Positions 2,705-54,200 of a stretch of DNA of 64,000 bases are shown piece by piece. A program made the position numbers and the translations under genes. The DNA is from Escherichia phage EP01, in the sequence record OM135583.1. One strand, 5' to 3'. Each line of letters opens with the position of its first letter. The stretch's first letter is position 1. The notes beneath the pieces were generated by a model. That model had not been told where the DNA came from and did not search any database. It saw nothing but the letters and a program-made list of their open reading frames with translations.

Positions 2705-4329
<1,625 letters not shown>

Positions 4330-4330
<1 letters not shown>

Positions 4331-4572
4331 TGGAAGGTTTAATTGAAGCTATTAAATCAAACGACCTCGTAGCCGCTCGTAAATTATTTGCTGAAGCCAT
4401 GGCTGCAAGAACGATTGATTTAATTAAAGAAGAAAAAATCGCTATCGCCCGTAATTTCTTAATCGAAGGTGAAGAACCTGAAGACGAGGATGATGACGAA
4501 GATGGTGATGATAAAGACGACAAAAAAGACAAAGACTCTGACGAAGATGACGAAGACGAGGATGATGAATAA
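4330..4572 (+). CDS. 67: prohead core protein with poly-acidic C-terminal tail, 80 aa
   Basis: ATGA-type junction with gene 20; D/E-rich tail; size and position as T4 gp67. Confidence 0.85.
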
Positions 4573-4997
4573 TGCTTCTGATCCCTGAAACTCATGAATT
4601 AGTTCTCGAGAATGTCGAAGCACTTATTCCTGAAGCACAGGGTCGCTTTGACGAATTGTCTTCTGCTTTAAATAAAGACGATATAAATACAATTATCGAG
4701 AATATGCTTGATGATGAAACTGATTTAGCAGTTGCATTAGCTTCTATTAATGAAAATATGCCGTTAAATGAATTCATTGTTAAGCATGTTTCAGCTCGTG
4801 GTGAAATTACACGTACTAAAGACCGCAAAACACGCGAACGTAATGCATTTCAAACCACCGGGCTGTCTAAAGCAAAACGTAGACAAATTGCTCGCAAAGC
4901 TACCAAAACGAAGATTGCCAATCCAGCAGGTCAATCTCGTGCTCAGCGTAAGCGTAAAAAAGCTCTTAAACGCCGTAAAGCATTAGGATTAAGCTAA
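4572..4997 (+). CDS. 68: prohead core protein, 141 aa
   Basis: Overlapping junctions with 67 and 21; basic C-terminus; size as T4 gp68. Confidence 0.85.
4682..4689 (+). promoter_or_regulatory. possible internal late promoter TATAAATA inside gene 68
   Basis: Exact 8-mer ~300 nt upstream of gene 21; could be chance in AT-rich DNA. Confidence 0.3.
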
Positions 4998-23619: not shown

Positions 23620-23623
23620 CAAT

Positions 23624-23641
23624 GGGGACCTTTCGGTCCCC
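23624..23641. terminator. bidirectional hairpin between convergent gene 54 and the 96-aa gene
   Basis: GGGGACC, TTTC loop, GGTCCCC, then ATATTTTTA. Confidence 0.65.
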
Positions 23642-23647
23642 ATATTT

Positions 23648-23938
23648 TTATTTACGGAATGAAATAAAAGCAGCAACTGAAGCAACTAAACTGTCTTCAA
23701 TATAAACTTCAATTTTTACCGGAGCTTCTGATTCAAATTTACCTGTTACTACACCATGGAAAATGCTTTCAGTCTGTTCTGGCTTTGAAAAATTTTCAGA
23801 AGGAAAAATTCCGAACTTTTTATCTGTTCCAAAAATTTTGATAAATTCATCGTAAACTGCTTCATTAAAAGCGTTATCAGCAGGAATAACGCCTTCAACT
23901 ACAAGTTCTTGACCTAAAAAGCGTAAAGAAGATTTCAT
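23648..23938 (-). CDS. hypothetical protein, 96 aa (position of T4 alt.-3)
   Basis: GAGGAA SD 6 nt upstream; early promoter cassette upstream. Confidence 0.6.
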   Translation of the reverse strand: MKSSLRFLGQELVVEGVIPADNAFNEAVYDEFIKIFGTDKKFGIFPSENFSKPEQTESIFHGVVTGKFESEAPVKIEVYIEDSLVASVAAFISFRK

Positions 23939-23946
23939 TTTGTGTT

Positions 23947-23999
23947 CCTCATGTTATGTCAGTAAGATTATTATAACACAACACGAGGGACTTGTAAAC
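23947..23999 (-). promoter_or_regulatory. early promoter plus leader cassette, copy 1, upstream of the 96-aa gene
   Basis: Minus strand GTTTACA, 17-nt spacer, TGT-TATAAT, leader with GAGGAA SD; 49/53 identical to copy at 39103-39155. Confidence 0.6.
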
Positions 24000-26056
24000 T
24001 ACATTTTGAACTTTTTAGACATTCCGTTGATGTTAATCAAAGAAGCCAAGATTTGAGAAACTTCGTTTTCCTCTTCTTTTGATTCTTCTACAAGGAATTG
24101 ATTAAATCCAGCCATTGGACGAACTTCACCAGTTTCCATCAGGTGGTCGCCATCATATACCGATTCTTCTAATTGTTCAGAAGGAGGAACGATTGTGCCT
24201 TCGATTAGATACTTGTTATAAGCAGTTTCTTTCATCATGTACGTACTCACTTTATTAATCTTCAGCAAAATTCCACGTGGTAAAATAACTTCAGCTTCTG
24301 ATGGAAATCCTGATAAATGACCCGGAACGATAACTTTGATTCGCTCAGCTCCTTTAATTACCATACCCACGCTAGTTTCAGCATCTTCATTCGCATAAGC
24401 AGAGTGACTGCCCATATGCATCAAATCTTCTGCGTCAACTGAACCTTCTCCTTCACCAGAAAATACTGCACCGGAATCATCTAGAGCCATATAGTTTTTA
24501 CCATACTCACCGAAGATATTTGGTTTAAGCGATGTTGATACGAAGTTCTTGAAATAGAACATTCTATTTTCAATATTATGACGTAAAGTTTTAAAGGTAA
24601 CTTCTTGTCCACGGTAAAGTGTAGTTCCTGGAGGAAGAACTGATCCTTTGGCAAAGGCAGAATCCATTGTCTCGATGTGTTTAATAGCTCGTTCCATATA
24701 TTCTTCACGGGTAGAATCTGGTTTACCTAAAAGGAACGAGTTCATTTCAACATATGAATCTGCACAATAATCTTCAATTACATCAGACTCAGCCTGAGTT
24801 AATCCTTTTGGGGGTACTTCAGTACTTGCATATTCATACGCTTGAGAAGCAGACTCATTAATCAATTTATAAATGCCATTCATGACAAATTGAACAATAG
24901 CTACCTTTTCATCTGGCGTGGCTTTAGAACCTTTAACTAAATCATTGACGATTTTCTTAATAACATCAAAGCTATTAGAAATATTAATGTCAGCAAGATC
25001 GCTTAAAATTTTATCAGTTTTATAATCAAAAAATTCTTTATTCTTTAAATATTCTTGAGAACCTTGATATGTTATATCGCTCTGTAACTTGATAGATGGA
25101 TCACGTAAACGTGCATGAGCCAATGCAATATGATTTCGGAAGCTTTCTAGTTCATAATCATTAGATTTAAAACGAGAAGCACTTCTCATACCACCGATAG
25201 CTCCTTTGCTGAAGTTTGAACCAACCTGAATAACGCCAGAGTTCATTGGTCCTTCTGCTTTATATACTGGAACTTTAGATTCAAACTCTTGATATTTCTT
25301 AGCAGCGAAGCTATCACCCTGAAGTGAAGCATCGACAGTAGAATATTGAGCTTGTGCTGCTAATCGACGACTAATTTTAGTTTTCTGAATTACAGCTTGA
25401 TCCGTGCGCTTATCATTTTCTAAAGCAATAGAAGCAGCAACAGCAACAGCTTTAGGAACAGCATTACCTGTTTTAACGTCTACATAAACATCACCAACCT
25501 TTGATTCAACTTTTGTGAATAACTCAGTTGAAATAGGAGGTACACCTGGAATGTCTTCTAAATTGGCATTTTTACGGTAAACCATAATATATGCATATTT
25601 CTTATCATAGTCCCAGATTTCCTTTAAAAGAACATATCGACCTGCTCCTTTAGTACGCACTAAACGGTCGGCAATAACTTGCATTTGACGAGCAGCGCCA
25701 TTTGTTTTACTCTTTAATACGCGGAATAGGCATGCGTCAATTTTGTACTGTTTCATTGTTTGAAGAGCAGTATCAAAAACCGCATTAATGACACCAATTG
25801 GATTTCCACCCAAGTTTTTAAGTTTAACTAATGATAGTTTCTCGTTGACACCTATCATTACGATATGCATCATTTTATCGCCTGGCTTAACGTTTTTATT
25901 TGTATCACCACCAGAGGTGTATGTACAAAATCTAAATCCAGGAAGCACGCTTTCTTCACCGGCTTGAATAGCAAAAATTTGAGGTATTTTATGCTTAGGA
26001 TTTAAGTTAACAACCGGCGCCGAAGCGCCGTCAAATAATTCTGTAATAAGTTCCAT
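23999..26056 (-). CDS. Alt-like mono-ADP-ribosyltransferase paralogue, 685 aa
   Basis: N-terminus MELITELFD as in Alt; C-terminal YRGQ...FVSTSL...EAEVILPRG consistent with an R-S-E ART core; AAGGA SD. Confidence 0.85.
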   Translation of the reverse strand: MELITELFDGASAPVVNLNPKHKIPQIFAIQAGEESVLPGFRFCTYTSGGDTNKNVKPGDKMMHIVMIGVNEKLSLVKLKNLGGNPIGVINAVFDTALQTMKQYKIDACLFRVLKSKTNGAARQMQVIADRLVRTKGAGRYVLLKEIWDYDKKYAYIMVYRKNANLEDIPGVPPISTELFTKVESKVGDVYVDVKTGNAVPKAVAVAASIALENDKRTDQAVIQKTKISRRLAAQAQYSTVDASLQGDSFAAKKYQEFESKVPVYKAEGPMNSGVIQVGSNFSKGAIGGMRSASRFKSNDYELESFRNHIALAHARLRDPSIKLQSDITYQGSQEYLKNKEFFDYKTDKILSDLADINISNSFDVIKKIVNDLVKGSKATPDEKVAIVQFVMNGIYKLINESASQAYEYASTEVPPKGLTQAESDVIEDYCADSYVEMNSFLLGKPDSTREEYMERAIKHIETMDSAFAKGSVLPPGTTLYRGQEVTFKTLRHNIENRMFYFKNFVSTSLKPNIFGEYGKNYMALDDSGAVFSGEGEGSVDAEDLMHMGSHSAYANEDAETSVGMVIKGAERIKVIVPGHLSGFPSEAEVILPRGILLKINKVSTYMMKETAYNKYLIEGTIVPPSEQLEESVYDGDHLMETGEVRPMAGFNQFLVEESKEEENEVSQILASLININGMSKKFKM

Positions 26057-26059
26057 GAT

Positions 26060-28153
26060 TTATCCTTGAACGAACTTGTAAGGCATGTTTGTAATATCTA
26101 TGCAAGACGCAATAATTCCGAGAGATGATTCTGCTTTCTGTTTAACATTTGATGAAACAAATGATGCAAAGTCAACTCTGTCTTCTATTTCAATATCACC
26201 TGTCATTGCAACTACTTCACCGGTTTCCATTAGACGGTCACCGTCATAAATGACTGATTCGGTGAGTTCTTCCGTAGTCATAACTTCAGCTTGAATGAGT
26301 TTTGTGTTATTAGATGTTGTTCCGTCATTATTAGAAGCATCAGTTATTTTATTAACTTTGACCATCAATCCGCGTGGTAGAATTACTTCAGCTTCTGTTG
26401 CTATTCCGAGACTCCCTGGATATACAACATTAACTTTATGAGCTCCATCAATTGCCCATCCTATTTGAACTTTAACGTATTCAGGATTTTCTTTATACGC
26501 TCTTATTTCGTTCGGATTAATAGTTATTCCTTCTTCATTTTTATCAACTGTTAATTCATTACGAGCTTCTGGTTCTAAAAGACCGATACCAGCATGTGTA
26601 ATTCCAAAACGTCCAAAAATGATAGGAGTTAAAGAAGTAGATACAAAATTTCTGAAATAGAACACTTTATTTTTAACTAGTGCTTCGTATATAGGAGCAG
26701 TCATACTTTGAGCACGATAAACTGTAATGCCTTCTGGTATACGGTCACCATTTTCAAAAGCTGAATCTAAATTATTTATCGCAGATTCAATTTCTTTTTC
26801 ACTCATTACATCATATCGTTCTGGATTGTAGCGGCCTAAAAGAAGATTATTGATGTCAGTATATCCTGATCCACAATATTCTCTAATGCCGCGCTTTTGC
26901 GATGGAGTATATTTAGAACCATCACGTGCAATGGTAATATCAATCATTGGACCTGCACCAATTCCAGAAAAGCTGTAAATCATTCTTTTGAGGAATTTAG
27001 TTTTTGCTGCGTTCCAGGAATTTTTAGTTATTTCTTCCCAGACTTCATCTGGCTGTCCTTTACGGGTTTTATTATGTTTATCAAGCCAAGTATCTTTATA
27101 TTCTTCAAAGAATTTATTAATAGCTGCTGCATACTTCTCTAAACATTTTATTGAAGTAGTTGGTTCATTTTTAATCGCATTAAGAATTACATCTTTAATT
27201 TTTTCAGAAACTTCATTAACCTCACTTTTTGAAAAGAATTTATAATCATAGTGAAGTTCATCTGCAGTTCCTTCGGCAATAATTTTTGCTGCTTTAGTTT
27301 TAGAAGCTAATGAATTAATTCCAAGTTTCATTTCTTCTGCTTCAGGAATTAAAGGAGCTGTAGCAGGTTTATTGAAATTAGCTGCGGTAGATTCATACTT
27401 CTGAAATAATTCATTTTCAAATCTAGAAGATTCTAATGATTGACTTTGCGCAATTGCTCTACGGGAAATTTTAACTTTAACGATTACAGCTTGGTCAGAA
27501 CGTTTATCATTTTCTTGCGCAATAGATGCTGCAATTGCCTCATTTTTAGTTACTTGGGCTCCAGTATCTTTATTGATATAAACATCGCCGACCTTCGATT
27601 CAACTTTAGTAAAGAGCTCGGTACTAATTTCCGGAACTCCTGGAATGTCTTCTAGTGATACATTTTTGCGATGTATAAGAATATATGCATACTTTTTATC
27701 GTAATCCCAGAGTTCCTTAAGAAGGACGTATCTGCCACCTGAACGACTACGGATAAGTCTATCAGCAATAACTTGAATTTGTCGAGCTTGGCCAGCAGTT
27801 TTAGACTTAAGAATACGAAGCATGCAGGCATCAATTTTATACTGACGCATCGTTTGCATCGCAACAGTAAAAACTGAATTGATGTAATTAATTGGGCTTG
27901 GACCGAGACCTTTCAATTTAGCAATTGAACCTTTAGCAGTTAATGTAAAAGGAACAATGTGCATCATTTTATCGCCCATCTTTAGATCACGGTTAGTATC
28001 ACCTCCAGATGTATAGGTACATAAACGAAAGCCTGGTTGTTCAATTGCGTCATCAACATGAACTGAAAAAATTTGCGGTATTTTCTTCTTTGGATTTAAG
28101 TTTGTAATCGGAAGAGTAGTATCTTCGTCAAATAATTCTGTAATGAGTTCCAT
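26060..28153 (-). CDS. alt: ADP-ribosyltransferase Alt, 697 aa
   Basis: N-terminus MELITELFDEDTTLPITNLNPKKKIPQIF matches remembered T4 Alt; adjacent to gene 30; second ATG chosen on SD spacing; late promoter 20 nt upstream. Confidence 0.85.
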   Translation of the reverse strand: MELITELFDEDTTLPITNLNPKKKIPQIFSVHVDDAIEQPGFRLCTYTSGGDTNRDLKMGDKMMHIVPFTLTAKGSIAKLKGLGPSPINYINSVFTVAMQTMRQYKIDACMLRILKSKTAGQARQIQVIADRLIRSRSGGRYVLLKELWDYDKKYAYILIHRKNVSLEDIPGVPEISTELFTKVESKVGDVYINKDTGAQVTKNEAIAASIAQENDKRSDQAVIVKVKISRRAIAQSQSLESSRFENELFQKYESTAANFNKPATAPLIPEAEEMKLGINSLASKTKAAKIIAEGTADELHYDYKFFSKSEVNEVSEKIKDVILNAIKNEPTTSIKCLEKYAAAINKFFEEYKDTWLDKHNKTRKGQPDEVWEEITKNSWNAAKTKFLKRMIYSFSGIGAGPMIDITIARDGSKYTPSQKRGIREYCGSGYTDINNLLLGRYNPERYDVMSEKEIESAINNLDSAFENGDRIPEGITVYRAQSMTAPIYEALVKNKVFYFRNFVSTSLTPIIFGRFGITHAGIGLLEPEARNELTVDKNEEGITINPNEIRAYKENPEYVKVQIGWAIDGAHKVNVVYPGSLGIATEAEVILPRGLMVKVNKITDASNNDGTTSNNTKLIQAEVMTTEELTESVIYDGDRLMETGEVVAMTGDIEIEDRVDFASFVSSNVKQKAESSLGIIASCIDITNMPYKFVQG

Positions 28154-28176
28154 CATATCCTCTCTAGTGTTTATTC

Positions 28177-28184
28177 TATTTATA
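28177..28184 (-). promoter_or_regulatory. late promoter (TATAAATA on minus strand) for alt
   Basis: Plus-strand TATTTATA, 20 nt upstream of alt start. Confidence 0.6.
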
Positions 28185-32515: not shown

Positions 32516-32570
32516 GGTGTTTAATTGCGGTACAGGTATATAATATCATATCCTGTACCAAAGTAAACAA

Positions 32571-32903
32571 TTATTTTACTACTTTCCAATGCTTCATGTC
32601 AAGTTTACCAACTTTTTTCATCTTCTCAATTAAGCGTTCGGCACGTTGGCGAGCTGTAACATAATACCATTCACCCAATTCATTTTGTTCAATTTTTCCA
32701 ACGATTACTGTATTCAATTCATAAATCCAACCAGTAAAGAAATTATGAACTTGAATTGTAAAGGTGAAATCTGTTCCCATACCTTCTGTTGTTTCTACTT
32801 CAATAATATCACCTTCAACTGCCATTAAGAACCACATAGTTTCGTTATATTCACCATTGAAACATTTAGCTTTAACCGCAGCGTTCAGATTAATCGTTTT
32901 CAT
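32571..32903 (-). CDS. hypothetical protein, 110 aa
   Basis: Same-strand ORF; early promoter and GGAGAA SD upstream. Confidence 0.6.
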   Translation of the reverse strand: MKTINLNAAVKAKCFNGEYNETMWFLMAVEGDIIEVETTEGMGTDFTFTIQVHNFFTGWIYELNTVIVGKIEQNELGEWYYVTARQRAERLIEKMKKVGKLDMKHWKVVK

Positions 32904-32930
32904 TTTATTCTCCTTTGTTTGTGTAAGATA

Positions 32931-32959
32931 ATACTATCACAAAGGAACTATACTGTAAA
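32931..32959 (-). promoter_or_regulatory. sigma70-type early promoter for the 110-aa gene
   Basis: Minus strand GTTTACA, 17-nt spacer ending TGTGA, TAGTAT. Confidence 0.5.
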
Positions 32960-32990
32960 CAACTTTGTGCAATCTTTGGAAAATAAAAAA

Positions 32991-35822: not shown

Positions 35823-35851
35823 ATAATATCACAACTCTACCGTAAAGTAAA
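35823..35851 (-). promoter_or_regulatory. sigma70-type early promoter for the 78-aa cd.x gene
   Basis: Minus strand TTTACT, 17-nt spacer ending TGTGA, TATTAT. Confidence 0.5.
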
Positions 35852-35854
35852 CTA

Positions 35855-39094: not shown

Positions 39095-39102
39095 CATAAA
39101 GT

Positions 39103-39155
39103 CCTCATGTTATGTCAGTAAGTCTACTATAACACAACATGAGGGACTTGTAAAC
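39103..39155 (-). promoter_or_regulatory. early promoter plus leader cassette, copy 2, upstream of alc
   Basis: Minus strand GTTTACA, 17-nt spacer, TGT-TATAGT, leader with GAGGA SD; near-identical to 23947-23999. Confidence 0.6.
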
Positions 39156-39158
39156 AGC

Positions 39159-40746
<1,588 letters not shown>

Positions 40747-51296: not shown

Positions 51297-54200
51297 ATGG
51301 CCGAGATTAAAAGAAAGTTCAGAGCAGAAGACGGTCTGGACGCAGGTGGCGATAAAATAATCAACGTAGCTTTAGCTGATCGTACCGTAGGAACTGACGG
51401 TGTTAACGTTGATTACCTAATTCAAGAAAACACAGTTCAACAATACGATCCAACTCGTGGATATTTAAAAGATTTTGTAATCATTTATGATAACCGCTTT
51501 TGGGCTGCTATAAATGATATTCCAAAACCGGCAGGAACTTTTAATAGTGGACGCTGGAGAGCATTGCGTACTGATGCTAACTGGATCACAGTTTCATCTG
51601 GTTCATATCAATTAAAATCCGGTGAAGCTATTTCGGTTAACACTGCAGCTGGTAATGATATTACATTTACTTTACCATCTTCCCCAATTGACGGTGACAC
51701 TATCGTTCTCCAAGATATTGGAGGAAAACCTGGAGTTAACCAAGTTTTAATTGTAGCTCCGGTGCAAAGTATTGTAAACTTCAGAGGCGAACAAGTACGT
51801 TCAGTACTAATGACTCATCCAAAGTCACAGTTAGTTTTAATTTTTAGTAATCGTCTGTGGCAAATGTATGTTGCTGATTATAGTAGAGAAGCTGTAATTG
51901 CAACACCAGCGAATACTTATCAAGCGCAATCTAACGATTTTATCGTACGTAGATTTACTTCTGCTGCACCGATTAATATTAAACTTCCGAGATTTGCCAA
52001 TCACGGCGATATTATTAATTTCGTCGATTTAGATAAACTAAATCCGCTTTATCATACAATTGTTACTACATACGATGAAACTACTTCAATACAAGAAGAT
52101 GGAACTCATTCTATTGAAGGCCGTACATCGATTGACGGTTTCTTGATGTATGATGATAATGAAAAATTGTGGAGATTGTTTGACGGGGATAATAAAGCAC
52201 GTTTACGTATTATAACAACTAATTCAAATATTCGTCCAAATGAAGAAGTTATGGTATTTGGTGCGAATAACGGAACAGCTCAGACAATTGAGCTTAAGCT
52301 TCCAACTAATATTTCTGTTGGTGATACTGTTAAAATTTCCATGAATTACATGAAAAAAGGACAAACAGTTAAAATCAAAGCTGCTGGTGAAGATAAAATT
52401 GCTTCTTCAGTTCAATTGCTGCAATTCCCAAAACGTTCAGAGTATCCGCCTGAAGCTGAATGGGTGACTGTTCAAGAATTAGTTTTTAACGGTGAAACTA
52501 ATTATGTTCCAGTTTTAGAGCTTGCTTATATAGAAGATTCTGATGGAAAATATTGGGTTGTACAGCAAAACGTTCCAACCGTAGAAAGAGTTGATTCTTT
52601 AAATGATTCTACTAGAGCGAGATTAGGCGTAATTGCTTTAGCTACACAAGCTCAAGCTAACGTTGATTTAGAAAATTCTCCACAAAAAGAATTAGCAATT
52701 ACTCCAGAAACATTAGCTAATCGTACTGCTACAGAAACTCGCAGAGGTATCGCAAGAATAGCAACTACTGCCCAAGTGAATCAGAACACTACATTCTCTT
52801 TTGCTGATGATATTATCATTACTCCTAAAAAGCTGAATGAAAGAACTGCTACAGAAACTCGTAGAGGTGTTGCTGAAATTGCTACGCAACAGGAAACTAA
52901 TGCAGGTACTGATGATACTACAATCATCACTCCTAAAAAGCTTCAAGCTCGTCAAGGTTCTGAATCATTATCTGGTATTGTAACCTTTGTATCTACCGCA
53001 GGAGCTACTCCAGCTTCTAGTCGTGAATTAAATGGTACAAACGTTTATAATAAAAACACTAATAATTTAGTTGTTTCGCCTAAAGCTTTGGATCAGTATA
53101 AAGCTACTCCAACACAGCAAGGTGCAGTAATTTTAGCAGTTGAAAGTGAAGTAATTGCTGGACAGAGCCAAGAAGGATGGGCAAATGCGGTTGTAACACC
53201 AGAAACGTTACATAAAAAGACATCAACTGATGGAAGAATTGGTTTAATTGAAATTGCTACGCAAAGTGAAGTTAATACAGGAACTGATTATACTCGTGCA
53301 GTAACTCCTAAAACTTTAAATGACCGTATAGCAACTGAAAGTTTAAGTGGTATAGCTGAAATTGCTACACAAGTTGAATTCGACGCAGGCGTCGACGATA
53401 CTCGTATCTCTACACCATTAAAAATTAAAACTAGATTTAATAGTACTGATCGTACTTCTGTTGTTGCTCTATCTGGATTAGTTGAATCAGGAACTCTCTG
53501 GGACCATTATACCCTTAATATTCTTGAAGCAAATGAGACACAACGTGGTACACTTCGTGTGGCTACGCAAGTTGAAGCTGCTGCAGGAACATTAGATAAC
53601 GTTCTAATAACTCCTAAAAAGCTTTTAGGTACTAAATCTACCGAATCGCAAGAAGGTGTTATTAAAGTTGCAACTCAGTCTGAAACTGTAACTGGAACGT
53701 CAGCAAATACTGCTGTATCTCCAAAAAATTTAAAATGGATTGCGCAGAGTGAACCTACTTGGGCAGCTACTACTGCGATAAGAGGTTTTGTTAAAACTTC
53801 ATCTGGTTCAATTACATTCGTTGGTAATGATACAGTTGGTTCTACACAGAGCTTAGAGCTATACGAGAAAAATAGCTATGCAGTATCACCATATGAATTA
53901 AACCGTGTATTAGCAAATTATTTGCCGTTAAAAGCAAAAGCTGCTGATACAAATTTATTGGATGGTCTAGATTCATCCCAGTTCATTCGTAGGGATATTG
54001 TACAGACGGTTAATGGTTCACTAACCTTAACCCAACAAACGAATCTGAGTGCCCCTCTTGTATCATCTAGTACTGCTACGTTTGGTGGATCAGTTTCGGC
54101 AAATAGTACATTAACTATTTCTAACTCTGGAACAGCAACTCGTCTGATTTTCGAAAAAGGTCCTGCATCTGGGGCAAATCCTGCACAGTCAATGAGTATT

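Follow-up and report, generated by a model that had tools for sequence, protein, structure and literature searches.

A repeated early-promoter cassette upstream of alc and alt.-3 in Escherichia phage EP01 may restrict translation to transcripts initiated at its own promoter

The 64,000-nucleotide (nt) stretch of DNA of Escherichia phage EP01 analyzed here (sequence record OM135583.1, referred to below as the window) contains two nearly identical 54-nt cassettes, located 15 kb apart on the minus strand, each of which runs from the −35 element of an early promoter to the Shine-Dalgarno (SD) sequence of the following gene, alt.-3 for copy 1 and alc for copy 2. Both cassettes are predicted to form a hairpin, and the model that we consider probable, if not compelling, is that this hairpin determines from which transcripts alc and alt.-3 are translated. 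The 5′ arm would be the spacer of the promoter itself, together with the −10 element, and the 3′ arm would be the transcribed leader with its SD. RNA arriving from upstream, either late RNA of alt and its paralogue for copy 1 or rnlA RNA for copy 2, would contain both arms and fold, thereby sequestering the SD, whereas RNA initiated at the cassette's own promoter, ~7 nt past the −10 element, would lack the 5′ arm and keep the SD open. Alc and Alt.-3 would be produced essentially only while the early promoters fire, whatever later transcription crosses the cassettes. The alc version would be old and conserved in the Tevenvirinae, and alt.-3 of Tequatrovirus would carry a copy of it, the two being kept alike by gene conversion, i.e., by nonreciprocal recombination.

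Two copies of an early-promoter cassette

The window belongs to Tequatrovirus and is ~98% identical to phages W143 and PP01. An earlier note on this DNA had reported that positions 23947 to 23999 and 39103 to 39155 were identical at 49 of 53 positions in the same orientation. A repeat search of the window bore this out and extended the match to 50 of 54 positions, the two copies forming a two-copy repeat family (D7, 93% identity). Read on the minus strand, copy 1 (23999 to 23946) is GTTTACAAGTCCCTCGTGTTGTGTTATAATAATCTTACTGACATAACATGAGGA and copy 2 (39155 to 39102) is GTTTACAAGTCCCTCATGTTGTGTTATAGTAGACTTACTGACATAACATGAGGA. The identity runs past the promoter hexamers into the leader, as the note had also claimed; it begins at the G of the −35 GTTTAC and ends only at the last base of the SD GAGGA, with unrelated flanks on either side. 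The similarity of the cassettes is far beyond chance, the expectation of a 50/54 match being <1e-12 by our own estimate (per-base match of ~0.28, all position pairs in 64 kb). A shared early-promoter consensus was considered as the cause of the similarity and rejected, since seven other early-promoter-like sites of the window agree with the two copies, and among themselves, at only 16 to 30 of 54 positions. Thus, membership in a promoter class is insufficient to account for the repeat. The self-comparison that had been proposed for counting copies gave two in the window, and an 81-nt query matched at two sites in almost every genome among ~500 Tequatrovirus records, including T4.

Judged from their sequences, both cassettes have the full anatomy of a T4 early (sigma-70) promoter, which is defined as GTTTAC, N17, TGn, and TAnnnT (PMC2988021, PMC1524935). 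On the minus strand, GTTTACA is followed by a 17-nt spacer ending in TGT, by the −10 hexamer (TATAAT in copy 1 and TATAGT in copy 2), by CTTACTGACATAACATGAGGA, and, 7 to 10 nt later, by an ATG, exactly as described in the earlier note. The sigma-70 scan scored 11/12 for copy 1 and 10/12 for copy 2, with the 17-nt spacer and the TG extension present in both, and comparison with T4 early promoters, another check proposed in the note, revealed agreement of both copies in the −35 element, the spacer length, the TG extension, and the −10 element. The cassettes differ from the class in their mutual identity (50/54 versus 16 to 30/54) and in that copy 2 lacks an obvious A-rich UP element: in the region of that element (~−40 to −45), the sequence upstream of the −35 hexamer is A-rich in copy 1 (ctaaaaagttcaaaatgta) and not in copy 2 (cccagaaggatactaagct). 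A site identical to the cassette in phage SA21RB carries a T4-early-like annotation. From the convention for T4 early promoters (PMC1524935), we infer that transcription would start at the A at 23963 in copy 1, the 7th nt after the −10 element, and at the A at 39119 in copy 2. Our search found no T4 5′-end dataset or map for placing these starts.

A predicted hairpin that covers the Shine-Dalgarno sequence in read-through RNA

Each cassette contains an inverted repeat, which had escaped the earlier note, by which the spacer and the −10 element pair with the leader and the SD over 15 to 21 bp. The helix of each copy continues into its own, nonhomologous 3′ flank, and the Tequatrovirus stems carry 2 to 3 G·U pairs. 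The identity of the leaders is explained by this predicted RNA hairpin of the leader and SD with the spacer and −10 element. In RNA reading through from upstream, the minimum free energy (MFE) was −21.7 kcal/mol for copy 1 (z = −4.77) and −27.8 kcal/mol for copy 2 (z = −4.65), none of 200 shuffled sequences being as stable. The 5′ arm is placed between the −35 and −10 elements, so that, with the start positions assumed above, the transcript of the cassette's own promoter lacks it; the MFE of this RNA was only −1.0 kcal/mol for copy 1 and −1.4 kcal/mol for copy 2. Opening the region from the SD through the AUG would cost 13.7 kcal/mol (copy 1) and 11.7 kcal/mol (copy 2) in the read-through RNA versus 2.2 and 3.6 kcal/mol, respectively, in the own-promoter RNA, and the predicted probability that the SD is unpaired in the read-through RNA is ~0. 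Among ~10 early-promoter-like sites of the window that precede an open reading frame (ORF), the read-through cost exceeded the own-promoter cost by 11.5 and 8.2 kcal/mol at the two cassettes, by 11.7 kcal/mol at the promoter of gp30.8, and by ≤4.2 kcal/mol at the other sites. A search against Rfam gave no match that reached the gathering threshold anywhere in the window, nor any at E ≤ 1 in the surroundings of copy 1.

Conservation and covariation in the Tevenvirinae

In ~30 of the 37 distinct alc cassettes that we collected, the bases that immediately follow GTTTACA pair with the final part of the leader, which contains the SD. This spacer-SD layout was found upstream of alc in Tequatrovirus, Dhakavirus, Gelderlandvirus, Karamvirus, Jiaodavirus, Kanagawavirus, Winklervirus, and further unclassified lineages, i.e., in at least 8 Tevenvirinae lineages. 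The pairing 5′ bases are UCUCC, UCCUC, or CCUC plus 5 to 9 more. The complete arms (5′/3′) are CCUCAUGUU/AACAUGAGG in Tequatrovirus, UCUCCUCAU/AUGAGGAGA in Dhakavirus, UCUCCGUUU/AAACGGAGA in Gelderlandvirus, UCUCCAUUUGGUU/AACCAAAUGGAGA in Karamvirus, UCCUCAUCAG/CUGAUGAGGA in Jiaodavirus, and CCUCGUUUGUU/AACAAACGAGG in HMGUkp2, with yet other arms in Kanagawavirus, Winklervirus, and three further types. The segments by which the lineages differ include CAUGUU/AACAUG, GUUU/AAAC, AUUUGGUU/AACCAAAU, AUCAG/CUGAU, GUUUGUU/AACAAAC, and UCGUUUUUG/CAAAAACGA. Outside Tequatrovirus, the helix comprises 9 to 13 bp, almost all of them Watson-Crick. Since the arm sequences differ among lineages yet stay complementary, the alc hairpin is under selection.

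An alignment-free test on 12 lineages gave a mean of −21.0 kcal/mol for cognate arm duplexes, a value not attained in any of 100,000 permutations, versus −12.2 kcal/mol for noncognate ones. The register of the helix differs among groups (i + j = 65, 62, or 61), and column-wise counting of pairs was restricted to a subgroup chosen for its shared register. In this subgroup, 87.5% of the cells were paired, versus 38 to 48% when the partner was slid, six pairs had changed on both sides, and the covariation score was 0.226 versus 0.129 for shuffled data (0/500). The MAFFT alignment was almost ungapped, and two shifted rows of the subgroup (L050 and L051) were out of register, which lowered the paired percentage. 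A covariance-model alignment (A5) that mixes antisense hits and other promoter types was left out of pair counting. Within Tequatrovirus, pairing was kept at 5 of 6 variable stem positions (G·U to A-U and C-G to U·G).

In Tequatrovirus, the sense strand folds with −20 to −26 kcal/mol versus −10 to −18 kcal/mol for the antisense strand. Strand asymmetry was dropped as a general proof of action at the RNA level, as it holds in Tequatrovirus and not across genera. The promoters of alc in RB69 (L018) and of alt.-3 in Dhakavirus and Marfavirus (L016/L079 to L090) have in common another type of spacer, which contains a small palindrome (ACACC..GGUGU or CCAC..GUGG) that is not transcribed from the promoter itself.

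Related layouts at other genes

The window contains a third early promoter with spacer-SD pairing, of unrelated sequence, upstream of gp30.8. Its spacer UUCCUUUGU pairs with ACAAAGGAG, which contains the SD, and the predicted opening cost is 12.0 kcal/mol in read-through RNA versus 0.3 kcal/mol in own-promoter RNA. The Dhakavirus orthologue of gp30.8 displays spacer-SD pairing through different arms, UCUCCGGU/ACUGGAGA. In Kanagawavirus alt.-3 (L026, L092 to L094), the spacer GAAUGAACG is complementary to the first codons (AUG CGUUCAUUC) rather than to the SD, and hiding the start region in this way in read-through RNA appears from the sequence to be a convergent solution.

Two other early-promoter-like sites of the window, at 32540 to 32568 and 35823 to 35852 on the minus strand, carry perfect inverted repeats around the −10 element (GGTACAGG...CCTGTACC and GGTAGAG...CTCTACC, respectively) that end before the SD and resemble promoter-early stem-loop (PeSL) cassettes. 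In Mosigvirus G53 (L017, positions 580 to 645), a small gene upstream of ndd is preceded by a −10 element and leader, TATAGTAGTCCTACTGAAACATGAGGAACACAAAATG, closely similar to those of the Tequatrovirus alt.-3 cassette, SD-to-ATG segment included, which hints at a wider shuffling of leaders.

Sequence exchange between the two loci

In genera other than Tequatrovirus, alt.-3 is preceded by a promoter whose spacer is of another type and contains a small hairpin of its own; the near-identity of the alc and alt.-3 cassettes is therefore specific to Tequatrovirus. The alc form looks ancestral, as the alc cassette of Dhakavirus resembles it through AGACTTAC. The two copies are identical at 50/54 positions in the window and at 53/54 in T4; identity is complete (54/54) among the three copies of G28 and between those of PP01 and of one IMG/VR phage. 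Two haplotypes, TATAATAAT and TATAGTAGT, were each found at either locus depending on the phage, and there are also intermediate forms. Their occurrence over the ~500 GenBank Tequatrovirus genomes is based on one BLAST query; exact-pattern scans retrieved 10 loci in IMG/VR and 8 in metagenomes. Two linked changes are common to the paralogous sites, which favors conversion over parallel mutation. There is clear evidence for concerted evolution between the alc and alt.-3 cassettes, and the haplotypes point to gene conversion, as the mechanism that we infer, keeping the two 54-nt copies alike. A Dhakavirus-like phage has, over 31 nt, the same sequence in its alc leader as in its own alt.-3 leader, the other Dhakavirus alc leaders seen being different; this comparison shows an independent exchange of leaders between alc and alt.-3, after which the 5′ arm still fits the new leader.

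Crossing-over between the direct copies would remove ~15 kb, including the DNA ligase gene, gene 31, cd, and pseT, so that only non-crossover products would be viable. With copies 15 kb apart and essential genes between them, conversion and not excision is possible; excision products were neither seen nor expected. The third cassette copy of phage vB_EcoM-G28 lies in a 351-bp tandem duplication (L015, positions 3996 to 4698) that spans the final 150 nt of rnlA, the cassette, and ~140 nt from the start of alc and gives a truncated alc ORF. Recombination between cassettes was rejected as the origin of this copy, which is a plain tandem duplication.

The earlier note had offered duplication of an early-promoter module, gene conversion, and a conserved RNA element as alternatives. 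All three together are supported, by the promoter anatomy, the shared haplotypes, and the hairpin with its compensatory changes, respectively.

Gene context and timing of expression

Copy 1 lies between the second Alt paralogue and alt.-3, and copy 2 lies between rnlA and alc (Table 1), in agreement with the earlier note, which had placed one copy before a 96-amino-acid (aa) gene after the Alt paralogue and the other before alc. Both cassettes occupy syntenic positions common to several genera (rnlA-alc and alt-alt.-3-gene 54), and the order of rnlA, a ~60-bp gap, and alc is kept across Tevenvirinae genera. T4 has the same two cassette copies, its second alt being reduced to the fragments alt.-1 and alt.-2. 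In the window, the full-length Alt paralogues are in tandem (23999 to 26056 and 26060 to 28156, minus strand) and ~70% identical in patches (repeat families D1, D5, and D6).

Table 1. Features of the cassettes, of their surroundings, and of the gp30.8 promoter
Feature	Positions	Strand	Remarks
Cassette copy 1, −35 through SD, 54 nt	23946-23999	-	Upstream of alt.-3; begins with the final G of the TAG stop codon that ends the Alt paralogue upstream
−35 hexamer TTTACA, copy 1	23993-23998	-	GTTTAC at 23994-23999; 11/12 match, spacer 17, TG extension
−10 hexamer TATAAT, copy 1	23970-23975	-	TGT directly before
Predicted hairpin 5′ arm, copy 1, CCUCGUGUUGUGUUA	23974-23988	-	In promoter spacer and first −10 bases
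Predicted hairpin 3′ arm, copy 1, UGACAUAACAUGAGG	23947-23961	-	Leader and SD (GAGGA at 23946-23950)
Cassette copy 2, −35 through SD, 54 nt	39102-39155	-	Upstream of alc; rnlA stop codon TAA 3 nt upstream
−35 hexamer TTTACA, copy 2	39149-39154	-	10/12 match, spacer 17, TG extension
−10 hexamer TATAGT, copy 2	39126-39131	-	From sequence and sigma-70 scan
Predicted hairpin 5′ arm, copy 2, AAGUCC-C-UCAUGUUGUGUU	39131-39149	-	One bulged C; from folding
Predicted hairpin 3′ arm, copy 2, GACAUAACAUGA-GGACUU	39099-39116	-	Contains SD (39102-39106); extends 3 nt beyond the repeat into locus-specific sequence
Third early promoter with spacer-SD pairing	32901-32960	-	Upstream of gp30.8; unrelated sequence; covariance-model hit, 23.6 bits
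alt.-3, 96 aa, DUF5498	23648-23938	-	Gene served by copy 1
alc, 168 aa, PF17527	38591-39097	-	Gene served by copy 2
Second Alt paralogue, 685 aa, ADP-ribosyltransferase domain	23999-26056	-	Gene upstream of copy 1
rnlA (gene 63), longest ORF	39159-40319	-	Gene upstream of copy 2; true start probably an ATG ~36 nt inside
Late-promoter motif TATAAATA	28177-28184	-	Just upstream of alt; likely source of late read-through RNA over copy 1
Two-way terminator-like hairpin	23622-23643		Between convergent alt.-3 and gene 54; GC-rich, 9 bp, loop of 4, T-runs on both strands

The T4 orthologues of alc and alt.-3 are early both in RNA and in protein (PMC9697503 supplements), whereas T4 alt is a late gene and rnlA is early in RNA and late in protein (PMC9697503). 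A motif scan found no TATAAATA late-promoter motif at either cassette. The late motif lies upstream of alt and a terminator scan found no minus-strand terminator-like site between it and position 23643; late alt transcripts should therefore cross copy 1 and alt.-3. The terminator-like hairpin that follows alt.-3 is the predicted end of the transcripts of alt, the alt paralogue, and alt.-3. Elsewhere in the window, positions 52698 to 53623 (plus strand) contain three to four diverged direct repeats of ~33 to 68 nt within one coding region (families D2 and D4), probably a repeated protein motif.

Discussion

The cassettes are of a known kind, early promoters of the PeSL type described in T4-like phages (Arbiol et al. 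2010, PMC2839356; Comeau et al. 2014, PMC4122927), to which promoter-gated translation would be added as a well-supported though hypothetical function. The class has been reported for the PST/T4 pair, in the same genus as the window (PMC4122927). The likeness extends to the intergenic unit, which comprises the upstream stop codon (overlapping the −35 element in copy 1 and located 3 nt before it in copy 2), a sigma-70-like early promoter, an SD, and an ATG. It also extends to the stable stem-loop, which in PeSLs lies between the −35 and −10 elements or over the −10 element and contains G-T pairs and which here has a z score of ~−4.7 and 2 to 3 G·U pairs. PeSLs are repeated within a genome and their copies exchange by recombination, features matched here by the shared haplotypes, the identical copies, and the leader swap of the Dhakavirus-like phage; the exchange of our cassettes is by conversion only. 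The differences concern function and location. PeSL stem-loops are read as terminators and recombination sites, translation being mentioned in neither paper, whereas the 3′ arm considered here is the SD and no U-tract follows. The legend of the 2014 PST figure places the stems just upstream of the promoter, whereas ours surround it. Finally, PeSLs lie in hyperplastic regions beside variable ORFans, whereas the two cassettes occupy conserved syntenic sites, 15 kb apart, with essential genes between them.

Sequestration of a translation start in long transcripts is established for T4 e, soc, 49, and I-TevI (also mobE and segB), in which a promoter in or after the 5′ arm yields translatable RNA, with a 100-fold effect in the case of gene e (PMC3014915). 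The arrangement proposed here would share with e, soc, 49, and I-TevI an SD or AUG held in a helix of the upstream transcripts, an internal promoter whose RNA lacks the 5′ arm, and gating by the identity of the transcript. It would differ in polarity. In these T4 genes, a late promoter (TATAAATA) serves as the internal promoter, and it is early or middle RNAs that are blocked; in the cassettes, an early sigma-70 promoter takes this place, the anti-SD arm is supplied by the spacer of that promoter, and the blocked RNAs would be later read-through transcripts. The genes alc, alt.-3, and 30.8 are not in the list of PMC3014915, a 2010 review of T4 posttranscriptional control that lists only late-promoter cases. 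In the accessible literature, older T4 papers being outside the search, we found no publication that connects a hairpin with alc or alt.-3, and use of an early-promoter spacer as an anti-SD arm is undescribed; a prior description is possible.

Several observations weigh against the proposal that the hairpin hides the SD in read-through RNA. The alc cassettes of the RB69 type have only a small hairpin inside the spacer, without sequestration of the SD, some alc lineages have a hairpin around the −10 element that ends before the SD, and the relatives from Acinetobacter and Aeromonas deviate from the alc hairpin layout. Because some alc lineages lack SD sequestration, the spacer-SD layout is not obligatory. 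Over all lineages, the sense strand was the more stable in only 19 of 32 cassettes, the G·U asymmetry being clear only in Tequatrovirus. The own-promoter RNA of alt.-3 has a weak predicted pairing of the SD with the coding region, although opening it would take only 2.2 kcal/mol, and the start position is itself assumed from the general T4 convention. The upstream stop codon lies 6 to 13 nt from the 5′ arm, so that a ribosome terminating there could melt some of the helix. In the PeSL studies, such stem-loops are read as terminators, as demonstrated for one RB49 element (PMC2839356). Lastly, there is no evident reason for keeping Alc or Alt.-3 untranslated later in infection.

We regard as unlikely the published PeSL reading, according to which the hairpin is a terminator or attenuator for the upstream gene and the promoter restarts transcription for alc or alt.-3. 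The RB49 stem-loop reduced expression of a downstream lacZ about as much as rrnB T1 did (PMC2839356), the elements of the window fit the PeSL layout (stop codon, −35/−10, stem-loop over the −10 element with G-T pairs, SD, and ATG), and other early promoters of the window have hairpins around the −10 element that do not touch the SD, so that some role other than hiding the SD must exist in the family. Against termination, consensus scans and inspection of the tails revealed no U-tract after either hairpin or in any genus, the tails of the alc and alt.-3 hairpins being A-rich, and the terminator scan made no call at either cassette yet called the hairpin that follows alt.-3. Intrinsic termination was set aside as unlikely on account of the lacking U-tract at both copies and across genera. 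The loops are long (5 to 24 nt) and the stems AU-rich, and the 3′ arm ends on the SD in ~30 of the 37 distinct alc cassettes, which termination does not need. Translational coupling, in which the SD would be hidden until a ribosome finishing rnlA or the Alt paralogue melts the helix, with polycistronic translation in proportion to the upstream gene, seems slightly less likely still. It could draw on the distance of 6 to 13 nt between the upstream stop codon and the 5′ arm in all lineages, and above all on the 6 to 7 nt seen in Dhakavirus and HMGUkp2, where the first pairs of a 9- to 11-bp helix would be within reach of a ribosome that terminates. In the window, however, the core helix begins 10 to 16 nt after the stop codon and comprises 15 to 21 bp, of which a ribosome would open a few pairs at most, judging from the size of its footprint. 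The tight spacing is also forced by genome compaction, since the −35 element has to follow the stop codon, and in T4 Alt is late but the Alt.-3 protein is early, the opposite of coupling.

That the cassettes have no function in RNA, being only a cassette for recombination or a strong promoter copied recently, with an inverted repeat that is incidental or acts in DNA (as a cruciform, a single-stranded DNA hairpin, or a protein site), is improbable. PeSLs have been proposed as recombination sites, exchange between the two loci was seen, and strand asymmetry cannot separate DNA from RNA structure outside Tequatrovirus, where the stems are almost all Watson-Crick. Nevertheless, arms that change between genera yet stay complementary make binding of a sequence-specific protein unlikely, and with loops of this length a cruciform would not extrude easily. 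The SD (or, in Kanagawavirus alt.-3, the start codon region) invariably forms one of the arms, which is a feature of the sense RNA, and the 2 to 3 G·U pairs of Tequatrovirus are mismatches on the other strand. An excision cassette is impossible, owing to the ~15-kb deletion that a crossover would cause. The Tequatrovirus helices, of ~20 bp and with a bulge, have a length compatible with cleavage by RNase III; a site at which RNase III or another nuclease would separate the upstream and downstream cistrons is nonetheless the explanation to which we give least weight, as very improbable, since the helix is only 9 to 13 bp in the other genera, which is short for RNase III, and the accessible T4 reviews give no sign of such cleavage.

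Beyond alc and alt.-3, hiding of the SD by the promoter spacer could, tentatively, be a recurrent design of T-even-type phages, although we hold this generalization to be doubtful. The spacer of a sigma-70 early promoter would double as an anti-SD arm, and the gene would be translated only from RNA born at its own promoter, as if the transcript carried a birth certificate. Such a gate would be conserved with covariation at alc in at least 8 Tevenvirinae lineages, re-invented at alt.-3 (via the SD in Tequatrovirus and via the start codon region in Kanagawavirus) and at gp30.8, and both spread and homogenized between loci by gene conversion, and many PeSL "terminators" would be translational insulators. 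With the alc/alt.-3 pair, a virus provides a small natural case of a 54-nt regulatory module evolving in concert. A promoter-spacer gate would be simple enough for reuse in synthetic operons that need promoter-specific translation. In T4, the reference system for the timing of gene expression, early promoters have so far been treated as purely transcriptional signals. If the proposal is correct, the timing of Alc, which shuts off host transcription, of Alt.-3, and of gp30.8 would be set by the origin of the transcript rather than by its abundance, and RNA sequencing alone would misreport their expression. The stem-loops of PeSLs would then have to be re-read as translational insulators by which a compact genome can place early genes behind late or middle ones.

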